From a virus (taxonomy: Duplodnaviria; Heunggongvirae; Uroviricota; Caudoviricetes), in IMG/VR virus record IMGVR_UViG_2563366805_000002: 30,982 bases of DNA; one strand, given 5' to 3'. Below, in pieces: positions 619 through 30,982 of the stretch (position 1 is the first letter of the stretch; every line of letters starts with the position of its first letter). Both the position numbers and the translations under genes were made by a program. The notes beneath the pieces are model-generated. The model did not search any database. It saw nothing but the letters and a program-made list of their open reading frames with translations, and had not been told where the DNA came from.

Positions 619-3600
619 TCAGCTGATACTGATGCCTGCGGTGGCTTTCTTCATCACCACAACCAGCAAATCGCTGATACTTGCTGTGGGATACCAGTCA
701 TTTACCAGCCATGCTGACACCGAAAACTCCAGCGTCATGTGGCCGTGACCAGCTGGCATATCAATAACACCACTGTAAATCAGCGTATTATCCAGCGCGG
801 TACGGTTATAAATTTCAGCACCATTTTTCTTCACTATCAGGCGGCATGAGGAGTAAATATCAGTATGCTCTCTCTCATGTTTAGCACCGCTGAATGCCAC
901 CGCCGGAATAACAATCTGCCGGTCAAACGGCTGATCGTCATAAATCCTGACGGTAATGGTCCCTGATGGCCACCGCTCCGGTGCCCGGGAGTCCCGCGGG
1001 AAAGCCTTACCCACTGTTTTGACAATATCGCCTTCAATCTGGTTGGCTGACAGTTTCCCTTTAATCTGACAGTTTTCATTTATCGTAACGTTGTTGAGCG
1101 TCCCGGCGTTCGCATTCACACTGCCACTGATATCTGCATTTTTAGCGGTCAGCTTTCCGTCCGGTGTCAGGGAAAATGCAGGAGGATTACCGCCGCTGGT
1201 AATGGTGGGAGCCGTCAGATATTTCAGGAACACTTCATTCATGAATATCTGATCACCCTGACCAACAAACATCGGTTTTGTGTTGCCATTTGCAGGATTA
1301 ATCATCGCAATCCTGTCTGCCGCCAGCAGCACCTGACTCTGCATGCCGTCGGGGGTGTTCTCAATACCGGCACCGATACCCGCAATATAAAGGCGTCCGT
1401 CCTGCATCTGCTGCAGCTTCACAGCCCACATGCTGTTCAGATTATTATTTGTATCAACCTGAACCTTCTGTATCTGCTGGATCGCTGCACTCTGGTCTTC
1501 CAGTTTCTTATTGACGGTCTGTGTGATTTCATTGCTGACATCCGTAATGGATGTCCTGATTTCAGCCAGGTCAGGCGCAAGCTGACCGTTATCAATCTGC
1601 GTCCACAGCTCCTGAGCCAGATGGGTTTTCCCTATCTCGCCTTTGAAAAAATCCAGATAGCCGGATGCGTCATCACTCGGCTGACCAACAGCCTCCACGA
1701 ATGCCGATTTGCCAACGGTGTTCACACTGCGAACGTAAAAATAATAATTATGGCCCGGCCTGATATTGATACTGGCGGCTATCCAGTACAGCGCCGTGCC
1801 AAGATAGCGTGCTGTGGTTTCAACCTGCCTGATATCCGCAATCCGCTTTTCCGAGAACCAGAACTCAAACTGTACCGTCGGATCATAAACCGCAAGATGC
1901 GGCGTGGCGGTTATCTGAAAATAGCCCGGCGTCAGCTCAATCCGCGACGGCGCTGCCGGTGCGGCAATCCGGAACGATACCGACGCCGGATCGCCCTGCT
2001 GCCCCCACGCATTTACCGCCCGGACTGTCAGCCTGTAGTTCCCCAGAGCCAGTTGTGTGAAGCGGTAAGTGGTTTCCGTCGTCCGGGCCGTGCTGACCAG
2101 CCGCTCACTGCCGTCATCCGCTGCCACGGTCAGGCGAAGCAGGAAGCTCACGCCCTTCACCACCTTCGGCGTGTCCCAGCGGGCCAGCACCTGGTATTCC
2201 CCGCTGTCTGCAGTGACTTCTGCGGTCAGGTGCTGCACCGCTGGCGGCGTGACACCGTTCACCGTGCCACTCTGTTCGCCGTCAAAGTGCGCCCCGTTAT
2301 CCACGATGACCTCTTTTTCCGGCACATGCTGCACGGCGGTGATGGCATACGTGCCGTCGTCGTTCTCACGGATACTCACGCAGCGGAACAGGCGCTGGCG
2401 CAGCCTCGGCAGCTTCAGCCCCCATACGCTGTATTCAGCAACACCGTCAGGAACACGGCTCACTTTCACCTTCACGCCGTCGGTGACGGACTGAACCTCC
2501 ACGCTGACCGGATTGCCACTTCCGTCAACCAGGCTTATCAGCGTGGTACCGGAGGATGGCAGCGTGATTTCACGGTCAAGCGTCAGCGTCCGGGTCAGGC
2601 TGTTCACCGCCAGCACACGACCACCGGTGCTGATACCGGCATAGTCATCATCACAGATTTCAATAACATCGCCCGGTACATGGCGAAGCCCTTCTGCGCC
2701 GACGCTGAAATCCACGGTCTGCGTTTCCAGCAGCTCCGTTTTAATCAGCCACAGCCCGGCTCGGTGTGCCTGCCCCCGGCTGGTACAGCCAAAGGCATCC
2801 ATCTTCGTGACATTACGACCGTAACGGGCAATGGCCTGCGTGTCCTCCACAAGCTCTGTCGCCGTCTCCCAGCCGTTATCCGGGTCAATCCAGTTCACCT
2901 CAACGGCATTATGGCGGTCCTTCAGGGCGCTGAAGCTGTAGCGGAACGGCGCGCCATCATCCGGCATCACCACATTACTGCGGTTATAGGTCCACACCTT
3001 ATCCGACGGTCGGTCCTGCACGAACGTCAGCGTCTGCCCGTTCCATACCGGCATACAGCGCATCGCCGAGCAGAAATCACTGAGCACATCCCACGCCTTG
3101 CGCTGTGTGGTCAGCCAGGCATTACAGGTGATGCGCGGCTCCGTGCTGCCAAAGCCGTCCGGCACCGACTGGTCGCAGTACTGGCCGATGACATACAGCG
3201 CCCATTTATCCACATCTGCCGCACCAAGACGTTTCCCCATGCCGTAGCGCGGGTGGGTCAGCATATCCCACAGACACCAGGCCATGTTGTTGCTGTATGC
3301 CGGTTTAAACGTTCCGTCCCAGATACCGCTGTATTGCCGCGTCTGCGGGTTATAATTCGACGGCACCTGCAGAATACGCCCGCGCAGATGATAATTACGG
3401 CTCACCTGCTGGCTGCCGAACTGCTCCGAATCCACCTGTACGCCGACCAGTGCCGTGTTCGGGTAGCACTGTTTCACATCGATGATTTCGGTGTATGACG
3501 ACCAGAGCGTTTTGTTCTGCAGCTGGTCTGTGGTACTGTCCGGCGTCATTCTGCGCATCCGGATATTAAACGGGCGCGGCGGCAGGTTATCCACCACCAC

Positions 3601-4098
3601 CGAGGCCAGATACTGCGAGGTGGTTTTGCCCTTAATGGTGATGTCTTTTTCCGTCACCCAGCCACCATTACGCTGTATCTGAACCAGCAGGCGAACTTCC
3701 GACGGATTCCGGTCCCCCTTTGAGGTGGTTTCCACCAGTGCCTGCACACCGAAGGTAAAGCGCAGTCGGTCGATGTTTGCCGACGTGATGGCGCGGGTGA
3801 TCGGCGTGTCGTATTTCACTTCCGTACCCAACACCGTCTCGGAGCCGGAGGATTCAAATCCCTCCGGCGGAGTCTGCTCCTGCTCACCGGCCCGGAACAC
3901 CACCGTGACGCCGGAGATATTGGTATTCCCCTCACTGTCCAGCACCGGCGTACTGTTCAGCAGCACGCTTTTTAATCCCTCCACCGGACCTTCAATCGGC
4001 CCTTCGCTGATGGCATCGATCACACTCAGCAACTGCGTGGTCTTCAGGTTGTCCTTCGCTTCGCGCGGAGTATGCCCCTTACTGCTTCCTTTACCCAT
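619..4098 (-). CDS. J: Tail tip / host specificity protein J (central tail fibre)
   Basis: 1159-aa ORF with SD GAGGA upstream; size, position after I and sequence character match lambda J (fibronectin-III-like repeats, C-terminal receptor-binding region). Confidence 0.9.
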
Positions 4099-6474: not shown

Positions 6475-9050
6475 CGTCCACCTCCGGAGAACAGACCACC
6501 ATCGCGCATCTGTGCCTGGATTTCATCACGGGCACCCTTGCGGGCCATGTCATACACCGCCTTCATCATCTGTGGACCTGGCAGACCATTCGTACCGTCG
6601 TTCTGAATCACCACGTGATTGTTCTGATTAAAATTAATGCCTTCAGCCCGCCGCATCTGCGCCGGACTTCCGGCACCGCCCACATAACCACCTTCCGCAT
6701 AGCCCCGCATCAGGCGGTACAGGTTGCCGACACCAATCCGGCTGGTTGCCTCCTTCGTGAAGACAAATTCACCACGGTGAACAATCCCCGCTGGCTCATA
6801 TTTGCCGCCGGTTCCCGTAAATCCCCCGGTCGCAAAATGGAATTTCGCCGCAGCGGCCTGAATGGCTGTACCGCCTGACGCGGATGCGCCGCCACCAACA
6901 GCCCCGCCAATGGCGCTGCCGATACTCCCGACAATCCCCACCATTGCCTGCTTAAGCAGAATTTCTGTCATCATGGACAGCACGGAGCGGGTGAAGCTGC
7001 GCCAGTTCTGTTCACTGCCGGTCAGCATCGCCGCCATATTCTGCGCAATACCATCAAAGGTCTGCGTGGCTGCACTTTTAACCTGCGACATACTGTCCGT
7101 GGCACTCTCTTTCCACTCGCTCCAGCCGGACCTGAGGCCTGCCATCCAGTTCCCGCGAAGCAGGTCTTCAGCCGCCCAGGTCTTTTTCTGCTCTGACATG
7201 ACGTTATTCAGCGCCAGAGGATTATCGCCATACTGTTCCTTCAGGCGCTGTTCCGTGGCTTCCCGTTCTGCCTGCCGGTCAGTCAGCCCCCGGCTTTTCG
7301 CATCAATAGCGGCCCGTTTTGCCCGTTGCTGCTGTGCGAATTTATCCGCCTGCTGCGCCAGCGCGTTCAGGCGCTCCTGATACGTAACCTTGTCGCCAAG
7401 TGCAGCCAGCTGGCGTTTGTACTCCAGCGTCTCATCTTTATGCGCCAGCAGGGATTTCTCCTGTGCAGACAGCTGGCGACGTTGCGCCGCCTCCTCCAGT
7501 ACCGCGAACTGACTCTCCGCCTTCCACAAATCCCGGCGCTGCTGGCTGATTTTCTCATTTGCTCCGGCATGCTTCTCCAGCGTCCGGAGTTCTGCCTGAA
7601 GCGTCAGCAGGGCAGCATGAGCACTGTCTTCCTGACGATCGCCCGCAGACACCTTCACGCCGGACTGTTTCGGCTTTTTCAGCGTCGCTTCATAGTCCTT
7701 TTTCGCCGCCGCCATCAGCGTGTTGTAATCTGCCTGCAGAATTTTCCCGTCCTTCAGTGCCTTGTTCAGTTCTTCCTGACGGGCGGTATATTTCTCCAGC
7801 GGCGTCTGCAGGCGTTCGTAAGCCTTCTGCGCCTCTTCGGTATATTTCAGCCGTGATGCCTCAGACTCGGCCCAGTCCTTTGCTGCCATCTCTCTGGCCT
7901 TTTCAAGATCGGCCTGCAACGTGGCGGCTGAAAGCCCAAGTTGCGCATTCGCTCTGTCCTCCCATGCTCCCCGGAGATTGGCAAGAAATGCTGAGGTTTT
8001 ACCGCGCCGGTGGCTCCGGCTCTGATACCACTGCCATTTTTTGTCCGCCTCATCAAAAGCCTTTTCTGCTTTCTCCAGCATTCCCTGGGCAGTGTCCGGG
8101 CGACCAATATCCAGCACCGAATCCCACATGGATTTGAATGCCCGTGCTGTCCTGTCTGCCCAGGTCTCCAGCGTGCCCATGTTCTCTTTCAGGCGGCGGG
8201 TCTGGTCATCAAACCCTTTCGTTGCGGCCTCGTTCGCCGCCTGCAATGCCCCGGCTTCATCTCCGGAACGCTGCAACTGAGCAACATACGCAATCTGCTC
8301 CGCCGTCACGTTATGGAACTGACGTGCCATCGCTGTCAGTCCCGACGTCGGGTCTGTGGTCAGCTTCCCGAAGGCTTCAGCGACCTTGTCCACCTCCACG
8401 CCGGATGCAGAGGAGAAACGCGCCACACTCTGGCTGATCGCCTCAAACTGCTCACCACCACGCACACCGGCATTCACCAGCGCCGTCAGTGACTCGCTGG
8501 TCTGGTTAAACGTCAGCCCTGCCGCCTGCCCGGCTCTGGACAGGACCAGCATACGATCTGCCGTCAGTCCCGCCTGATTGCCGGAAAGGACCAGCGTTTT
8601 GTTGAAATCGGACAGGGTTGAGTTGCCCTGATACCAGGCATACGCCAGCGCACCGGTCGCCACCGCCAGCGAGGTGGCCCCCACCATCGGCAGGGTGATC
8701 GCACCGGCAAGCCCCCTGAACATGGGGATCATCCCGCCGAAGGAGTCCTTAACCTGACCACCCTGTTGCAGCAGGATCAGCCACGGGCTTTGCCCGCCTG
8801 CAAGCTGCGTGGCCACGTCGGTGAACTGTGCAGGCAGCATACGCATGGCGGCTTTATACTGCCCGACGGAAATCCCCGCTTTCTGTGCAGCCAGCGCCTG
8901 TCGGCTCAGCGACTGTTCAACGACTGCCGCTGTTTTTTTCGCATCAGTTTCCGTACCGGAAAAATGACGCCTGACTCTGGCCATCTGCTCGTCAAATCTG
9001 GCCGCATCCAGACTTAAATCAACGACCAGATCGCCTACCGGTTCAGCCAT
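6471..9050 (-). CDS. H: Tail tape measure protein H
   Basis: 859-aa ORF, Ala/Gln-rich coiled-coil character, Gly-rich C-terminal region; position between T and M as in lambda. Confidence 0.9.
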   Translation of the reverse strand: MAEPVGDLVVDLSLDAARFDEQMARVRRHFSGTETDAKKTAAVVEQSLSRQALAAQKAGISVGQYKAAMRMLPAQFTDVATQLAGGQSPWLILLQQGGQVKDSFGGMIPMFRGLAGAITLPMVGATSLAVATGALAYAWYQGNSTLSDFNKTLVLSGNQAGLTADRMLVLSRAGQAAGLTFNQTSESLTALVNAGVRGGEQFEAISQSVARFSSASGVEVDKVAEAFGKLTTDPTSGLTAMARQFHNVTAEQIAYVAQLQRSGDEAGALQAANEAATKGFDDQTRRLKENMGTLETWADRTARAFKSMWDSVLDIGRPDTAQGMLEKAEKAFDEADKKWQWYQSRSHRRGKTSAFLANLRGAWEDRANAQLGLSAATLQADLEKAREMAAKDWAESEASRLKYTEEAQKAYERLQTPLEKYTARQEELNKALKDGKILQADYNTLMAAAKKDYEATLKKPKQSGVKVSAGDRQEDSAHAALLTLQAELRTLEKHAGANEKISQQRRDLWKAESQFAVLEEAAQRRQLSAQEKSLLAHKDETLEYKRQLAALGDKVTYQERLNALAQQADKFAQQQRAKRAAIDAKSRGLTDRQAEREATEQRLKEQYGDNPLALNNVMSEQKKTWAAEDLLRGNWMAGLRSGWSEWKESATDSMSQVKSAATQTFDGIAQNMAAMLTGSEQNWRSFTRSVLSMMTEILLKQAMVGIVGSIGSAIGGAVGGGASASGGTAIQAAAAKFHFATGGFTGTGGKYEPAGIVHRGEFVFTKEATSRIGVGNLYRLMRGYAEGGYVGGAGSPAQMRRAEGINFNQNNHVVIQNDGTNGLPGPQMMKAVYDMARKGARDEIQAQMRDGGLFSGGGR

Positions 9051-9477
9051 ACCGGACTCCTCCTGCGATCCCTTCTGATACTGTCATCAGCATTACGTCA
9101 TCCTCCGTCATGTCCGCCACATCCGGGGAAGCGGGGATAACTTCATTCCCGTCCGGGCCAAAACGAACGCCTCCGGCAAGCCCTGCCGCTTTCTGCATCA
9201 GCACATCATCTTCAGGCTCTTCGTCAGCCTCGCGCCGGTTCAGCAGACTGAAATCCAGCGGATGCATCTCCGGATCGCTGAAAAACAGGCTGAGCACGGT
9301 GTACGTCAGCCCGGAAAAGTGCATATCCAGCAGAACATCATGAAAATAATGGGTACTGTAAAAGCGGTGCCAGTCGGCATACTCCGTGGATGACATCCCG
9401 GCAAGCATGGCGCGCCAGTCGGGTCGCCCCATCTCACGCGCCAGTTTCAGGGCAAAACTCAGCTCACCGTCGAACAC
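9043..9477 (-). CDS. T: T portion of the G-T tail assembly chaperone (made by -1 frameshift from G)
   Basis: 435-nt ORF in the -1 frame relative to G, overlapping the G 3' end, same length as lambda T. Confidence 0.8.
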   Translation of the reverse strand: MFDGELSFALKLAREMGRPDWRAMLAGMSSTEYADWHRFYSTHYFHDVLLDMHFSGLTYTVLSLFFSDPEMHPLDFSLLNRREADEEPEDDVLMQKAAGLAGGVRFGPDGNEVIPASPDVADMTEDDVMLMTVSEGIAGGVRYG

Positions 9478-21214: not shown

Positions 21215-21485
21215 GATGTTACCGTAGTATGTGAGTATCCATCGAATAGACACCAAGCCAAAAAGCTCCCGAAGGAGCCTTCATTTTCACTTTTTTAAAT
21301 CCAACGACAGACGGCTGGCATTTAAGTATTGTGAAATATTATCAAATGTAATCATCATTGATTTACAAAAGATACATTTTGCCCCGAAAGGATTCATGTC
21401 AGAAACATCAAAAGATGATGTTCTATACTGGGAACCATGACAACACGGGCATCTAAAGTGAATATGGTTTGTAATATTGTCTACC

Positions 21486-21698
21486 TCAAAGCGCCACTAC
21501 ATGAACAGCGGCAGGACCTTTAGGTCCGTTCTCAATACCAAATTCAACTTCCTGATTCTCAGTTAATGTTTTGAAATCGTTGCTCTGAATTGCTGAGAAA
21601 TGGACAAACACATCTTTGCTGCCATCTTTCGGCGTGATGAAACCAAAACCTTTTTCAGGGTTAAACCATTTTACTAAACCAGTCATTTTGTTAGACAT
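21486..21698 (-). CDS. cspI: Cold shock protein CspI-like (CspA family)
   Basis: 70-aa [41 protein letters not shown] with RNP1/RNP2 motifs; matches E. coli CspI as I recall it. Confidence 0.85.
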
Positions 21699-22048
21699 AA
21701 TTATTACCTTTTGAAGAAATTAGCCCTTGGGCAGAATGGTCCGAAAAAAAATATCAGAGAGAAAAACCAACAAGGAAATCTCAAGAGGTACAAATAATAA
21801 AATTATAACAATGACTGCTTCAGATAAATTTGTAACAAACCAGAACACCATTAACGCATGATTAACCACCCATAGCAAGGATTACTTTTGTAAAGAAAAA
21901 CACAGCAATGAAAGAATAGCTTTATTTATTAATAAAACGTGTCATTCTGATTAAGACCTTTTATCTTACCCTTAAGATTTCAGGAATTTTGGCTCATGGA
22001 AGAGTCCTTTTTATTTAAATTTTACATTCCGCGGGTAATGACTCCAAC

Positions 22049-23764: not shown

Positions 23765-24045
23765 GAGATTGTGGTGCTTTTTGTGGGAGTCATCCACTTA
23801 CGCACTTTGTTTTGCCATGCCAGCAGTTAGCTTCTGCTGTAAAACTATTCATGCAGCAAACCTGCACTTCACCACAATGGTTAGCATACTTTTCCTGATT
23901 AAGATTTTGCCAAATATGCTGGCCATTGTTTCATGTATTGGACCTCCTTAATTTTTATTAAAGAAATCCAATATTCACTACTCTGTCCGTATCTCTACTC
24001 AGGCATCAGCCTTCTTCGTTATCGTATACAGACGAGCGATGAATT

Positions 24046-24261
24046 TTAATCAGTAATGATGACATTTGCTGCTGCAGGACCTTTAGCACCACTCTCTATA
24101 GAGAAGGTAACCTTTTGACCTTCAAATAAGGTTCGATAATTATCATTCTGAATCGCAGAAAAATGCACAAACACATCTTTACTACCATCAACAGGAGAAA
24201 TAAAGCCGAAACCTTTATCAGCGTTAAACCATTTTACTAAACCAGTCATTTTATTTGACAT
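24046..24261 (-). CDS. cspB: Cold shock protein CspB-like
   Basis: 71-aa [56 protein letters not shown]...; matches E. coli CspB as I recall it. Confidence 0.85.
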
Positions 24262-24561
24262 TCTACATTCCTTAACTTGAGCCTTTCGGCATAAATGGTT
24301 TGCATAACAGAAACGACTTCGTACTTAATTGGAGAGACTCAAAGAAGGAATAAGTGAATAACACCTGAAATGAGAACTGCTTTAGTAAACTACTTCGTAT
24401 ATCGTCTGTTCTTCAAACCGACGCAATCATTAACGCATAGTTGAACATATGAAGCAATGTTTATTTTAGACATCCAGCCATCTTCAACCCCATCAAAAAA
24501 CTATAGCTTTCTTCAGGAACGTGTGTATAGTGCGCCAAGTTATCAGTATTAAGGAATTTTT

Positions 24562-27748: not shown

Positions 27749-27904
27749 TTACTCCTCAGGTTCGTAAGCTGTGAAGACAGCGACCTCCGTCTGGCCGGTT
27801 CGGATTCGTACCTCGCAGAGGTCTTTCCTCGTTACCAGTGCCGTCACTATGACGGTTAAACAGATGACGATCAGGGCGATTAACATCGCCTTTTGCTGCT
27901 TCAT
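27749..27904 (-). CDS. hokD: Hok-family type I toxin (HokD/RelF-like)
   Basis: 51 aa MKQQKAMLIALIVICLTVIVTALVTRKDLCEVRIRTGQTEVAVFTAYEPEE; SD AAGGAGAAG about 6 nt upstream. The ORF track shows an in-frame 19-codon upstream extension. Confidence 0.85.
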   Translation of the reverse strand: MKQQKAMLIALIVICLTVIVTALVTRKDLCEVRIRTGQTEVAVFTAYEPEE

Positions 27905-28519
27905 AGCCTGCTTCTCCTTGCCTTTCGGCACGTAAGAGGCTAACCTACATGTGTCTAGCATGAAATTGGCCTCAGATTAATGTTAAGCGTCTTGCAGGAC
28001 GCGTAATGTCAACTGGGGCTTTTCTCTATCTGCCTTTGGTGTTCATGCCTGAGGCAGATAGCCTCAAGCACCCGCAGCAATTCTACTTAACTCACGTCAC
28101 CTCGCCAATATAAAATCAATCAGAAAGGCGATCCGTAAGAACAACAGCAAGACAATAAATTGCCATTACAGCCGCAATAGCTAGCGCACATTTGAGAACC
28201 AGCACGACAACCTCCTGTATTGGACGTACACCAGTCCTGATAAATATGAGGCTGTCTCATCATTGATTCAATATAACTATTGGGTATAGTTTCTGTGATT
28301 TTGTTCTGTAGAAATGGAACACAACAACCAGTCTCCACCAGCACTTCTTTAAATACGCCAAGTCCGACGCAAGCTAACCTTCTAGTCCGCTTTGAGCGAA
28401 CTGTGGAAGCTCGCAAATGTTGTTACATCTGATGAAGGCATTACTCAAAGGAGGGGATAGTAGTCAACGTGGAGCAGGCCATGTTAGTATTTTTATACAA
28501 TTCGACTAAGGGAAAAACA

Positions 28520-28708
28520 ATGAGGCTTTACATAATAGGAAATGGATTTGACATGCGTCATGGCTTACCAACAGGATACAAGCACTTTAAGTCGTATGTA
28601 GAAAAAAATGACCAAGATCTATATGACGCGATAGAAGAATACATTCCTGCTGGGGACGAGTGGAATGAGTTAGAAAATGCTTTAGGTGAAATTGATTATG
28701 AGCTTTGA
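28520..28708 (+). pseudogene. AbiH-like abortive-infection gene, N-terminal 62 codons only (cut by IS3)
   Basis: MRLYIIGNGFDMRHGLPTGYKHFKSYVEKN... carries the N-terminal IIGNGFD...HGL motif I associate with the AbiH family (Pfam PF14253); the stop codon TGA at 28706-28708 is the first three bases of the IS3 terminal repeat. Confidence 0.5.
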
Positions 28709-29150
28709 TCCTACCCACGTAATATGGACACAGGCCTAAGCGAGGTTCTTGTTTTCAAATTGTTCCGGACTGAGGCCGCCACACCAACTGTGCCGCCGCC
28801 ACCGATTGTAATCACATTCGATATAATTAAACACCGTTGCCCGCATTATTTCCCGGCTGATAAAGTGTTCTCCATGGATACATTCCACTTTCAGCGAATG
28901 AAAGAAGCTTTCCACGCAGGCATTATCGTAGCAGCAACCTTTTGCGCTCATACTTCCACGCAGATTATGCCGCTTCAGTTGCGCCTGATAATCTGCTGAA
29001 CAGTACTGGCCTCCACGGTCCGTGTGAACGATAACGTTCCGGGGCCTCTTACGCCGCCACAGCGCCATCTGCAGGGCATCGCAGGCCAGTTGCGCCGTCA
29101 TGCGTGGCGACATTGACCAGCCAATAACGGCACGTGACCACAGGTCAATG
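28706..29150 (-). mobile_element. IS3: IS3 fragment (terminal ~445 bp including the right inverted repeat)
   Basis: TGATCCTACCCACGTAATATGGACACAGGCCTAAGCGAGG terminal sequence at 28706; encodes the InsF C-terminus ...[13 protein letters not shown]; IS3 homology stops abruptly at 29150. Confidence 0.85.
28736..29150 (-). pseudogene. insF: IS3 transposase InsF (orfB), C-terminal portion only
   Basis: Residues ...[49 protein letters not shown]... including the DDE-domain region; the N-terminal part is replaced by the IS629-like element. Confidence 0.8.
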
Positions 29151-29202
29151 TGAACCGCCCCGGTAATCCTGGAGACTACACTCTTTGAGAGAGGTAACCA
29201 GG

Positions 29203-29526
29203 ATGACAAAACATAACCGATTTCCCCCTGAAGTTCGTCAACGCGCTATTCGTATGGTTCTGGAAAACCAGAATACCTACAACTCACAATGGGCCGCTAT
29301 CTGCTCCATTGCCCCTAAGATCGGCTGCACTCCCGAGACATTGCGTATCTGGATCCGTCAGCAGGAGCCCGTTGATGATGAGCAGAATGCGCTGACTGCC
29401 AGCGAACGCCAGCGTCTGAAAGAACTGGAGCGGGAAGTCCGCGAGCTGCGCCGCAGCAATGATATTCTGCGTCAGGCTTCAGCGTATTTTGCCCAGGCGG
29501 AGCTCGACCGCCACTGGAAAAAATAA
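29203..29526 (+). CDS. IS3-family transposase OrfA (HTH)
   Basis: [54 protein letters not shown]... with a leucine-zipper-like C-terminus; related to IS629 OrfA. Confidence 0.8.
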
Positions 29527-29940
29527 TGCCGCTTCTGGAAAATCTGAGCGGTGAACACGGGGTCGGGCCAGTCTGTCATGAGCTGGATATTGCTCCGTCA
29601 ACGTACTACTGGCATCAGCAACGCCGGAAGTGTCCTGAACGACGCAGTAGTCGGGATAAACGCGATGCCGTGCTGATACCTGAGATACAGCGCGTATACG
29701 AAGAAAACTACAGCGTTTACGGTGTGCGTAAGGTCTGGCGACAGCTAAAACGTGAAGGTGTCGGCGTTGCCCGCTGCACCATTGAGCGCCTGATGAAAGC
29801 CCTGCAGCTACGTGGGGTGACACGCGGCAAAAGTGTCAGAACCACCCGCAGCAACAAAGCCGAAACACCGCAGGATCGGGTGAACCGGCAGTTCGTGGCT
29901 GAACGGCCCGATAGTCTTTGGGTGGCCGATTTTACCTACG
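29526..29940 (+). CDS. IS3-family transposase OrfB, 5' portion (interrupted after ...LWVADFTY by the intron)
   Basis: The frame reads ...RPDSLWVADFTY and then enters intron sequence at 29941; the ORF-track residues after this (GVPGVQGEHGC...) are intron-encoded read-through. Confidence 0.7.
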
Positions 29941-30982
29941 GTGTGCCCGGAGTTCAGGGTGAGCATGGATGCTCAAATGAACCACGAGTCTGTCTGGAAT
30001 ATTGAACCGGTAACTCACGATGAGAAACCCAACAATCCCGTCGGGTGTGACGGCGGAGAACCTGAGCGGCAGTGACCTGCGGCATGCCCGCAGGGTGATG
30101 TAACCCGCTGACAACGGGGATTGAGGCGAGATCACTAAGCCGAGATGATCCTCAAGGTTAAGTACTGAAAGGCTGAAGAACATGAACCCGTTAATCCGCC
30201 TCTGTGGGTTGAAAACGTCACCACGGCCTACGTGATCTGACAGGCCGTGCAGGAGGAACTGGCAGTGATACGTAAGCACTGCCGGTCGAAGGTTTTTTGA
30301 CATGTATGCGAAACACCGGGGCAGCAGCGTCTATCACGCTTGCGTTGCTGACCTCTGCCAACTTGCGGCAAGCAAGGATAAAGAGTGCGACGGGCAGCCT
30401 CCTCAGTATGCCTGAGTCCAGACAGGTAAACCGGGGAAGGTCAGCGACGGATGTTAAGGGGGCATGGCTCCGATGACGCGCTGGCTGGCGGAGCTTCCGT
30501 AGTAGTCCGCGATGGGGAAAGCCCATTACATGGCGAAGGGAAGCAGTTTGAATGTGTTTGCGACGTGAATTAACTGACCTAACGAGGTGAAGACCTTTGA
30601 TAATCAGCGAAATGCAACGCAAGCTTGCCACATGGGCAGTCACCGATCCGTCCCTACGGATTCAACGGCTGCTGCGTCTGATAACACAACCAGAATGGCT
30701 GGCTGAAGCGGCGCGGATCACGCTTTCATCAAAGGGGGCCCATACCCCCGGCGTTGATGGCGTGAACAAAACAATGCTACAGGCCAGACTGGCTGTTGAG
30801 CTGCAAATCCTCAGGGATGAATTACTCTCAGGCCACTACCAGCCCTTGCCCGCCAGACGGGTTTACATCCCTAAAAGCAACGGCAAACTGCGACCACTGG
30901 GTATCCCCGCGTTGCGGGATCGTATTGTTCAGCGGGCCATGCTGATGGCGATGGAGCCGATATGGGAGAGTGATTTTCATAC
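29941..30982 (+). mobile_element. Group II intron, 5' part (domains I-IV and start of the intron-encoded protein), continues beyond the window
   Basis: Begins GTGTGCCCGGAG... (GUGYG consensus, similar to the Ll.LtrB 5' end GTGCGCCCAGAT); about 670 nt of structured non-coding sequence, then an RT-type ORF. Confidence 0.7.
30612..30982 (+). CDS. Group II intron-encoded reverse transcriptase/maturase, N-terminal 123 codons (partial)
   Basis: MQRKLATWAVTDPSLRIQRLLRLI...HTPGVDGV...YIPKSNGKLRPLGIPALRDRIVQRAMLMAMEPIWESDFH has the RT domain 0/1 signatures (TPGVDG, RPLGIP, RDRIVQ). An alternative TTG start at 30597 has better spacing to GAGGTGA. Absent from the ORF track because there is no stop in the window. 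Confidence 0.8.
   Translation, partial: MQRKLATWAVTDPSLRIQRLLRLITQPEWLAEAARITLSSKGAHTPGVDGVNKTMLQARLAVELQILRDELLSGHYQPLPARRVYIPKSNGKLRPLGIPALRDRIVQRAMLMAMEPIWESDFH

Follow-up and report, generated by a model that had tools for sequence, protein, structure and literature searches.

E.c.I4 is a group II intron of class A, a mobile self-splicing ribozyme that carries a reverse transcriptase/maturase. It is described as inserting at particular positions in IS3-like transposases, those of IS629, IS911, ISEc16, and ISEc31 (PMC3522654). It is tabulated by Leclercq and Cordaux (Tables S2 and S3 of PMC3522654), under a naming rule by which an intron is E.c.I4 if its nucleotide identity to the reference intron exceeds 90%. 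In the classification of Toro and Martinez-Abarca, class A holds introns with proteins that have no En domain, and then had three nearly identical members (PMC3552965). Other E. coli introns share with E.c.I4 the habit of homing into insertion sequences, namely E.c.I2 and E.c.I9, which are associated with an Rhs-associated IS, and E.c.I3, associated with IS679, but these differ from it in belonging to class D, in their targets, and in their low copy number (PMC3522654). E.c.I4 itself is found at up to 20 copies per E. coli genome, with 15 to 20 being the range supported both by that survey and by our own count.

Two introns studied in other bacteria are useful for comparison. Ll.LtrB of Lactococcus lactis, a IIA intron, is like E.c.I4 in its GUGYG start, its domains I to VI, the placement of its ORF in domain IV, the DIVa stem that covers its ribosome-binding site, and targeting by pairing of EBS with IBS sequences. 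It is unlike E.c.I4 in that its protein LtrA has D and En domains and the cleavage of the bottom strand serves as the primer, while no HNH match is seen in the E.c.I4 protein, and in that the 2 introns are of different structural classes. RmInt1 of Sinorhizobium meliloti (class D, IIB3) has no endonuclease, homes into the transposase gene of ISRm2011-2 by way of EBS1, EBS2, and EBS3, and is the model of retrohoming primed at the replication fork. The absence of an endonuclease and the choice of an IS transposase as the target are likenesses to E.c.I4, while the protein and RNA class are different, and what RmInt1 targets is one member of an IS family and not a motif common to many IS.

The window, which is the whole stretch of 30,982 nucleotides analysed here (IMG/VR record IMGVR_UViG_2563366805_000002), ends in sequence that the initial annotation called a group II intron inserted in the sense orientation in a transposase orfB. 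That stands, and the intron now has a name. Positions 29941 to 30982 on the + strand, the strand of every feature given below, are very probably the 5′ portion of an E.c.I4 copy that retrohomed in the sense orientation into the orfB of an IS3-family element. These 1042 nt align at 98.9% identity with the published E.c.I4-2b and share its first base; the reference is NC_009801 4848623-4850893 of E24377A (PMC3522654, Table S3), taken here as locus L004. The identity is above the 90% called for by the naming rule, and the best identity found for the 1042-nt query is 99.1%, among 3116 matching records, which are distributed over 2586 of the 5426 complete E. coli genomes and mostly lie at 95% to 99% identity. 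The E. coli matches listed are annotated as ltrA or as group II intron reverse transcriptase/maturase, and the chromosomal copies of E.c.I4 in complete E. coli genomes number roughly 3500. A sequence match of this kind is not due to chance, and the intron in the window is an already known and very common element at its usual homing site.

The likeness to E.c.I4, and to the nearly identical S.f.I1 of Shigella (class A in the Zimmerly database), covers the sequence, the first base, and the N terminus of the reverse transcriptase (RT). The window copy also sits, as E.c.I4 does, at a fixed position in a gene for an IS3-like transposase (PMC3522654), and, going by full-length copies at the same site, its RT/maturase would have no En. 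Where it departs from other E.c.I4 copies is in having a rarer IS as its host, a site that mismatches EBS1 and EBS2 at one position each, and nine private substitutions.

The host element and the splice junction

The host is an IS of 1305 bp, of which the window has the 5′ part of 790 bp at 29151-29940, serving as exon 1 of the intron and identical at 790 of 790 positions to an uninterrupted copy (L005 1011-1800). The ends of the IS are defined in L005 and in L003, where it has inverted repeats TGAACCGCCCCGG.../...CCGGAGCGGTTCA and 3-bp direct repeats. The left inverted repeat TGAACCGCCCCGG starts at 29151, with which it agrees that the window match stops at 29150 in many genomes. The first gene, orfA, is at 29203-29526 and its product matches HTH_Tnp_1; the orfB frame occupies 29526-29940. 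An A6 slippery site for −1 frameshifting is at about 29517-29523, and an ALIL pseudoknot at 29481-29597 (Rfam RF01497, 93.3 bits against a cut-off of 50, E = 4.9 × 10−23) spans the overlap of orfA and orfB, as a stimulator of programmed −1 frameshifting of the type of IS3411/IS629-type elements. The uninterrupted copy is itself annotated with a programmed frameshift. The two overlapping ORFs with their −1 frameshift and rve DDE domain, together with the terminal inverted repeats and the 3-bp direct repeats, make the host a member of the IS3 family, so the insertion in the sense orientation in a transposase orfB is as initially described. The host IS is rare, being found in 50 of the 5426 complete E. 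coli genomes, and its DNA is about 71% identical to that of the IS629-type host of the Shigella copy. The intron insertion explains the apparent truncation of the IS3-family orfB at 29940, and also why assemblies have a tendency to break at loci of this kind.

The intron begins with GTGTG at 29941. The OrfB codons ahead of it, W-V-A-D-F-T-Y, occupy 29919-29939, and the G at 29940 closes the exon and opens a Val codon (G/TC). The initial annotation had the intron begin immediately after the WVADFTY codons, in which it was right about position 29941 and overlooked this one intervening base. It also held the boundary to be uncertain by tens of nucleotides, a caution that can be dropped. When window 29641-29940 is joined to L003 7062-7361, the product is identical at 600 of 600 positions to the unbroken IS found in nine records (H46-H54), one of which is another locus of strain C 236-04A, and the splice junction is unambiguous because the flanking bases differ at each boundary.

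In the full-length copies L002 and L003, the intron ends ...CTCTTACTCTAC and the exon follows with TCAGCACC. The insertion point is between bases 1 and 2 of the codon after D-F-T-Y, a motif that includes the first catalytic Asp of the DDE transposase (...GAT TTT ACC TAC G/), and the position is identical in an IS911-type host (L004) and an IS629-type host (L007). The published length of 2271 nt, as compared with 2270 nt here, probably includes one flanking base. In a full-length version of the window copy, the intron would go on for about 1228 bases past 30982 and end ...CTCTTACTCTAC with the exon TCAGCACCTGG next, and the junction in the spliced mRNA would read ...GATTTTACCTACG/TCAGCACCTGGCAG..., equal to ...ACCTACG/TCAGCACC.... 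Restoration of the OrfB frame on splicing had been held to be what a correct 5′ boundary should give, and the frame is restored: the spliced OrfB reads ...WVADFTY-V-STWQGFAYVAFIIDVF... (WVADFTY-V-STWQG), stays open through to the stop codon, and matches rve and NCBIfam transpos_IS3, the latter with 304 bits against a cut-off of 160. Both boundaries and the restored frame are demonstrated, as is the identity of the intron.

Maturase, ribozyme domains, and probable target pairing

The RT/maturase gene, ltrA, is encoded from an ATG at 30612, which is 671 nt from the GTGTG at 29941 and bears out the earlier estimate of about 670 nt between the 5′ end and the ORF. The window includes its N-terminal 123 codons (30612-30982) and no stop, the end of the window cutting the ORF. 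Over these 123 codons the product is the same as WP_001189123, the protein encoded in L002 and L004, and when window codons 1-123 are taken alone Pfam gives no match. What the rest of the gene should look like can be seen in 2 full-length copies at the same site, L002 on the chromosome of strain C 236-04A and L003 on a plasmid, which are respectively 99.5% and 99.4% identical to the window over 29150-30982 and have an intron of 2270 nt. The intact protein in these copies is 502 aa long, with RVT_1 at 86-332 and GIIM at 356-421, and scores 341 bits against TIGR04416, the group II RT/maturase model (cut-off 300). The domain search of the 502-aa protein in the same-site copies found no HNH domain match. 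Downstream of the ORF, L003 6975-7061 matches Rfam RF00029 (Intron_gpII) with 64.9 bits against a cut-off of 40, giving the location of domains V and VI; domain V begins GAGCCG, and the region is conserved among the relatives aligned. Domains V and VI and a complete RT/X-domain ORF, which had been expected downstream, are accordingly to be found in full-length relatives at the same site, the window itself ending at 30982. For the window copy, we infer that domains V and VI, the remainder of the ORF, and the 3′ exon would be those of the 99.9%-identical locus of strain C 236-04A.

To describe the RNA structure ahead of the ORF we depend on comparison. A protein-guided scan with one genome per species gave 80 loci with RT identity of 66% to 100%, out of 311 candidates confirmed by tblastn. 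In 67 of the 80, a GTGYGCC is found 635 to 724 nt upstream of the RT start, mostly at 663 to 683 nt, and in 12 of the 13 relatives where it is not visible the upstream sequence is too short. The RNAalifold consensus of 51 distinct 5′ regions has 144 pairs, with 97.8% of the cells paired, as compared with 83% in column shuffles and 36% to 44% when the partners are slid by 1 to 3 columns. Compensatory changes occur in 92 of the 144 pairs versus 31 to 39 when partners are slid. The fold of the single sequence 29941-30611 is unexceptional, with z = −1.7, and against the intron 5′ part in the window Rfam gives no group-II-D1D4 model match, even at E ≤ 1, so the support for domains I to IV is comparative only.

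By this comparison, the 51 relatives give up the structure that the initial annotation proposed to look for in 29941-30611, as domains I to III and the foot of domain IV. After the GUGUG start comes domain I, at 29946-30435 (intron nt 6-495), with compensatory changes in most of its helices, and its parts are IA at 29952-29982, IB at 30036-30056, IC at 30059-30159, and ID at 30162-30409. Domain II is at 30436-30489, where 9 of the 11 pairs of helix 21 are changed on both sides. Domain III, at 30493-30544, contains a conserved CGUAGUAGUC internal loop, and its helices 23-25 have compensatory changes. At 30574-30607 comes the base of domain IV, with a DIVa-like stem-loop that is 98.8% to 100% paired in the 51 relatives, is nearly invariant, and has no compensatory changes among them. 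The GAGG ribosome-binding site of this stem sits directly upstream of the RT start codon. By analogy with DIVa of Ll.LtrB, the intron-encoded protein probably binds this stem. The order of the end of domain III at 30544, the DIVa stem, and the ATG at 30612 agrees with the original placement of the ORF in domain IV.

The pairing of the intron with the upstream exon, also anticipated at the outset, is assigned to 2 hairpin loops. The EBS1 hairpin is at 30259-30285, with a stem of 30259-30267 against 30277-30285 and the loop AUACGUAAG at 30268-30276. Within the loop, EBS1 would be 5′-CGUAAG-3′ at 30271-30276; the consensus NGUANG is conserved on a stem whose sequence varies freely. It faces IBS1, CCTACG at 29935-29940 (exon −6 to −1), which runs from the end of the Thr codon through the Tyr codon to the first Val base. 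Five of the 6 positions are paired, with a C × A mismatch at −5, and against the IS629-type site CTTACG all 6 are Watson-Crick pairs. When exons and introns are permuted, 40 of 5000 permutations reach the observed value, a count that ignores phylogeny. Compensation is to be seen in L062, where an exon CGUUCG accompanies CGAAUG, and in L018, where an exon AGCUAU accompanies AUAGCU.

The EBS2 hairpin is at 30207-30222 and has in its stem a covarying Y-R pair, which is C-G in 31 sequences and U-A in 19. Its loop contains 5′-AACGUC-3′ at 30214-30219, the candidate EBS2, facing IBS2, GATTTT at 29928-29933 (exon −13 to −8), which is the Asp and Phe codons of D-F-T-Y. Here too 5 of the 6 positions are paired, with a U × C mismatch at −10, and 5 of 5000 permutations reach the observed value, again ignoring phylogeny. 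Loop base 30216 tracks exon position −10, as U-A, as C-G, and as G facing U or C, and in L029, a relative hosted by an IS6-family element, the loop is changed to AUCAUC and faces the exon GAUGAG. Unbiased scans of exon columns against intron columns are noisy and confounded by phylogeny and GC content, with comparable z-scores at some irrelevant columns. Given one mismatch each, permutations blind to phylogeny, and the noisy column scan, we regard the assignments of EBS1 to 30271-30276 and EBS2 to 30214-30219 as well supported, not proven. Covariation in these alignments supports the ribozyme structure and the EBS/IBS pairing alike.

Two other candidates were rejected. For EBS1, UGUGGG(U) at 30203-30209 pairs at 7 of 7 positions with both IS types, but it exhibits no covariation, 4060 of 5000 permutations reaching its pairing, and its GG(Y) belongs to the helix with the covarying Y-R pair. 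For EBS2, GUGAUGU (intron 155-161), complementary to AYAUCAC, is located in domain IC and ignores changes in the exon, and its U/C changes together with a partner inside the intron (column 148-176).

The state of the copy at this locus

The chromosome of strain C 236-04A matches window 6000-30982 at 99.9% identity over 25 kb, and in it the same IS copy contains the full-length intron of 2270 nt with an intact ORF of 502 aa. In that strain, there is also an IS110-family insertion of 1368 bp (L002 7230-8597) with a 6-bp duplication, placed 168 bp into the 3′ exon. The host IS interrupts a copy of IS3, and that IS3 had truncated an AbiH-family gene. The surroundings are nested, decayed IS elements within a prophage, and hok/sok and the AbiH-family remnant are near the intron.

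A sense-orientation intron might splice from the transposase mRNA and leave the host IS competent for transposition, as the initial annotation pointed out. In principle that holds: the frame is regained at the exact junction, and the 790 bp of IS sequence 5′ of the intron match the uninterrupted copy throughout, with orfA and the frameshift signal intact. As an account of this locus, we find it distinctly unlikely. The IS110-family insertion splits the 3′ exon of the same IS copy in the closest genome, which makes a rescue of the IS by splicing unlikely here, and the host IS sits within a truncated IS3. Bacterial group II introns in IS elements reportedly act mainly as retroelements, a view attributed to Dai and Zimmerly in 2002. 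With that IS110-family element in the 3′ exon of the closest genome, the host IS is probably dead here anyway.

It is very unlikely that the window copy is a 3′-truncated or otherwise dead intron fragment, even though such fragments of E.c.I4 are known from several E. coli and Shigella genomes, K-12 included (PMC3522654, Table 3), about 16% of the matching genomes cover less than 80% of the 1042-nt query, and at this locus broken IS elements are piled up one inside another. Against it are the full-length intron and intact ORF at the corresponding locus of strain C 236-04A, the identity of the 123 RT codons with the intact protein, and the nature of the substitutions in the ribozyme. Compared with eight E. 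coli-type copies, the window copy has nine private substitutions, all in domain I at intron nt 20-482. Pairing is kept by those that fall in the IA and IB hairpins, as at 30040/30054, where A-U has become G-C, a state shared with L021, and some of the nine return to states found in more distant relatives.

There is next to no chance that this is the RT gene of a non-intron retroelement (retron, DRT, or Abi) beside a truncated transposase gene, for which weak partial matches to NCBIfam retron and Drt models (18 to 54 bits, far under the cut-offs) and the AbiH-family and hok/sok neighbors might be cited, and which is refuted by the TIGR04416 match above cut-off with its GIIM domain, by the covarying ribozyme before the ORF and domains V and VI after it, and by the exact junction, removal of the element restoring the IS precisely.

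With the sequence taken to be a retrohomed E.c.I4 copy, a route by which it came to this place may be outlined. The intron would have retrohomed in the sense orientation by reverse splicing into DNA. The choice of target would be made by RNA-DNA pairing, of EBS2 AACGUC with GAUUUU at −13 to −8 and of EBS1 CGUAAG with CCUACG at −6 to −1, and the invariant T at +1 would be IBS3. Since the protein is without an endonuclease domain, reverse transcription would presumably be primed by nascent DNA at replication forks, as it is in RmInt1. Reverse splicing, fork-primed reverse transcription, and binding of the protein to DIVa are steps that we infer from what is established for group II introns in general. 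If the IS were transcribed, splicing would join the exons exactly and restore OrfB. The target bases code for an active-site motif that hardly varies, which lets a single intron home into many elements of the IS3 type.

The reach of the clade and its target motif

The relatives from the protein-guided scan indicate how far this choice of target extends. All 59 of the 59 related loci with at least 16 nt of upstream flank have GAY-NTN-ACN-TAY-N or a close variant of it there, and the 3′ exon begins with T in every relative for which the intron 3′ end was found. When the spliced hosts of the relatives are translated, most of those checked are IS3-family elements, L057 and L075 are IS481-like, and L029 belongs to the IS6 family. 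The clade includes proteins down to 66% identity and is found in Gammaproteobacteria and Alphaproteobacteria, Nitrospirota, Desulfobacterota, and others. Going by these flanks, the E.c.I4-like clade homes into the stretch of DDE transposase genes that codes for the motif around the first catalytic Asp, with exceptions such as L024, L058, and L077. It seems likely that the E.c.I4 lineage as a whole is a large and widespread clade that homes into the D-x-T-Y codons of rve-type DDE transposases. In such a lineage the Asp codon would be read by EBS2 and the Thr and Tyr codons by EBS1, with the EBS loops retuned to whichever codon variant is present locally.

The insertion of E.c.I4 in conserved regions of IS3 elements is already published, and what might be new here is, at most, the breadth of the pattern and its reach across IS families; on class-wide targeting of the DDE motif, nothing relevant was found in the searchable literature. 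The copy in the window is of little importance in itself, and the pattern across the clade is of some general interest. If it is true, there is a retroelement lineage whose targeting follows an active-site motif in the proteins of other mobile elements, and homing into D-x-T-Y codons would be a way for a retroelement to secure many target sites that are non-essential, horizontally mobile, and evolutionarily constrained.

Prophage setting and nested insertions

The entire window falls within a lambdoid (Qin-like) prophage region, in which a tail tape measure, terminase, portal, ydfT and ydfU are present. Two cspA-type thermoregulator leaders (RF01766) lie on the minus strand at 21459-21844 and 24030-24422, with scores of 115 and 158.8 bits, and suggest that the prophage carries two cold-shock protein genes. 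A hok/sok type I toxin-antitoxin locus follows, also on the minus strand, at 27749-28073; its sok RNA is found at 27899-28073 (RF01794, 119.5 bits), and a Hok-like ORF within 27749-27961, with the sequence MKQQKAMLIALIVICLTVIVTALVTRKDLCEVRIRTG..., is annotated as hokD in the matching genome.

Between 28469 and 29150, directly upstream of the IS that carries the intron, there are insertions nested in one another. An AbiH-family ORF of 79 aa (28469-28708) is truncated where it meets the right end of a minus-strand IS3 copy (28709-29150), which starts with TGATCCTACCCACG and whose OrfB C-terminal half is inside the ORF at 28736-29209. At 29150/29151 this IS3 copy is itself interrupted by the intron-carrying IS. 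In the chromosome of strain C 236-04A, the closest genome, the rest of the IS3 continues beyond the intron-bearing IS, the nested-insertion region occupying 3332-4009 and 8947-9429 of locus L002.

The intron copy in the window

Compared with eight E. coli-type copies, the intron copy in the window has nine substitutions (29960-30422), all of which fall in intron nt 20-482. In the 790-bp flanking exon and the following 560 nt of intron sequence, the window matches strain C 236-04A exactly. That the nine substitutions cluster suggests that they came from a slightly divergent E.c.I4 lineage through recombination or gene conversion, and not from slow decay.

The intron also has a conserved motif pair resembling an internal copy of EBS1/IBS1, with about 20 nt between the two members. 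The first, YGWGGG (UGUGGG in the window, 30203-30208), is complementary to the exon CCUACG, and the second, CCUAC (30228-30232), has the same sequence as the exon IBS1 core. Covariation with the exon is absent for both motifs. Their role might be in a tertiary contact or in an alternative pairing.

Relatives in other records and at other sites

Many draft assemblies contain the intron as a stand-alone contig of 2251-2281 nt (L008, L010, L013, L052, L066 and L067 are whole contigs), suggesting a repeat collapsed in assembly. RTs 87-99% identical to that of E.c.I4 also occur in records labelled Chryseobacterium, Microbacterium, a Bacillota MAG and a 'Halomonas' MAG (L012, L015, L019 and L009); their presence under these labels suggests contamination or very recent transfer.

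A few relatives have variant 5' exon sites. At the Phe (TTC) sites of L062 (ACG TTC G) and L065 (ACC TTC G), EBS1 is altered in step with the exon. Pairing with the variant exon is weaker for L024 (ACC TGG C), L058 (ACG TTT A) and L077 (TGC TAT A), which may be ectopic or decayed insertions. The relative in a Halioglobus MAG (L029, 564-2840), with an RT 71% identical, is hosted by an IS6-family transposase at the site D-E-T-Y (GAT GAG ACC TAT A, with the intron directly following), and its EBS2 loop is altered to AUCAUC, matching GAUGA. This combination of host and loop indicates a jump between IS families via retuning of one loop.
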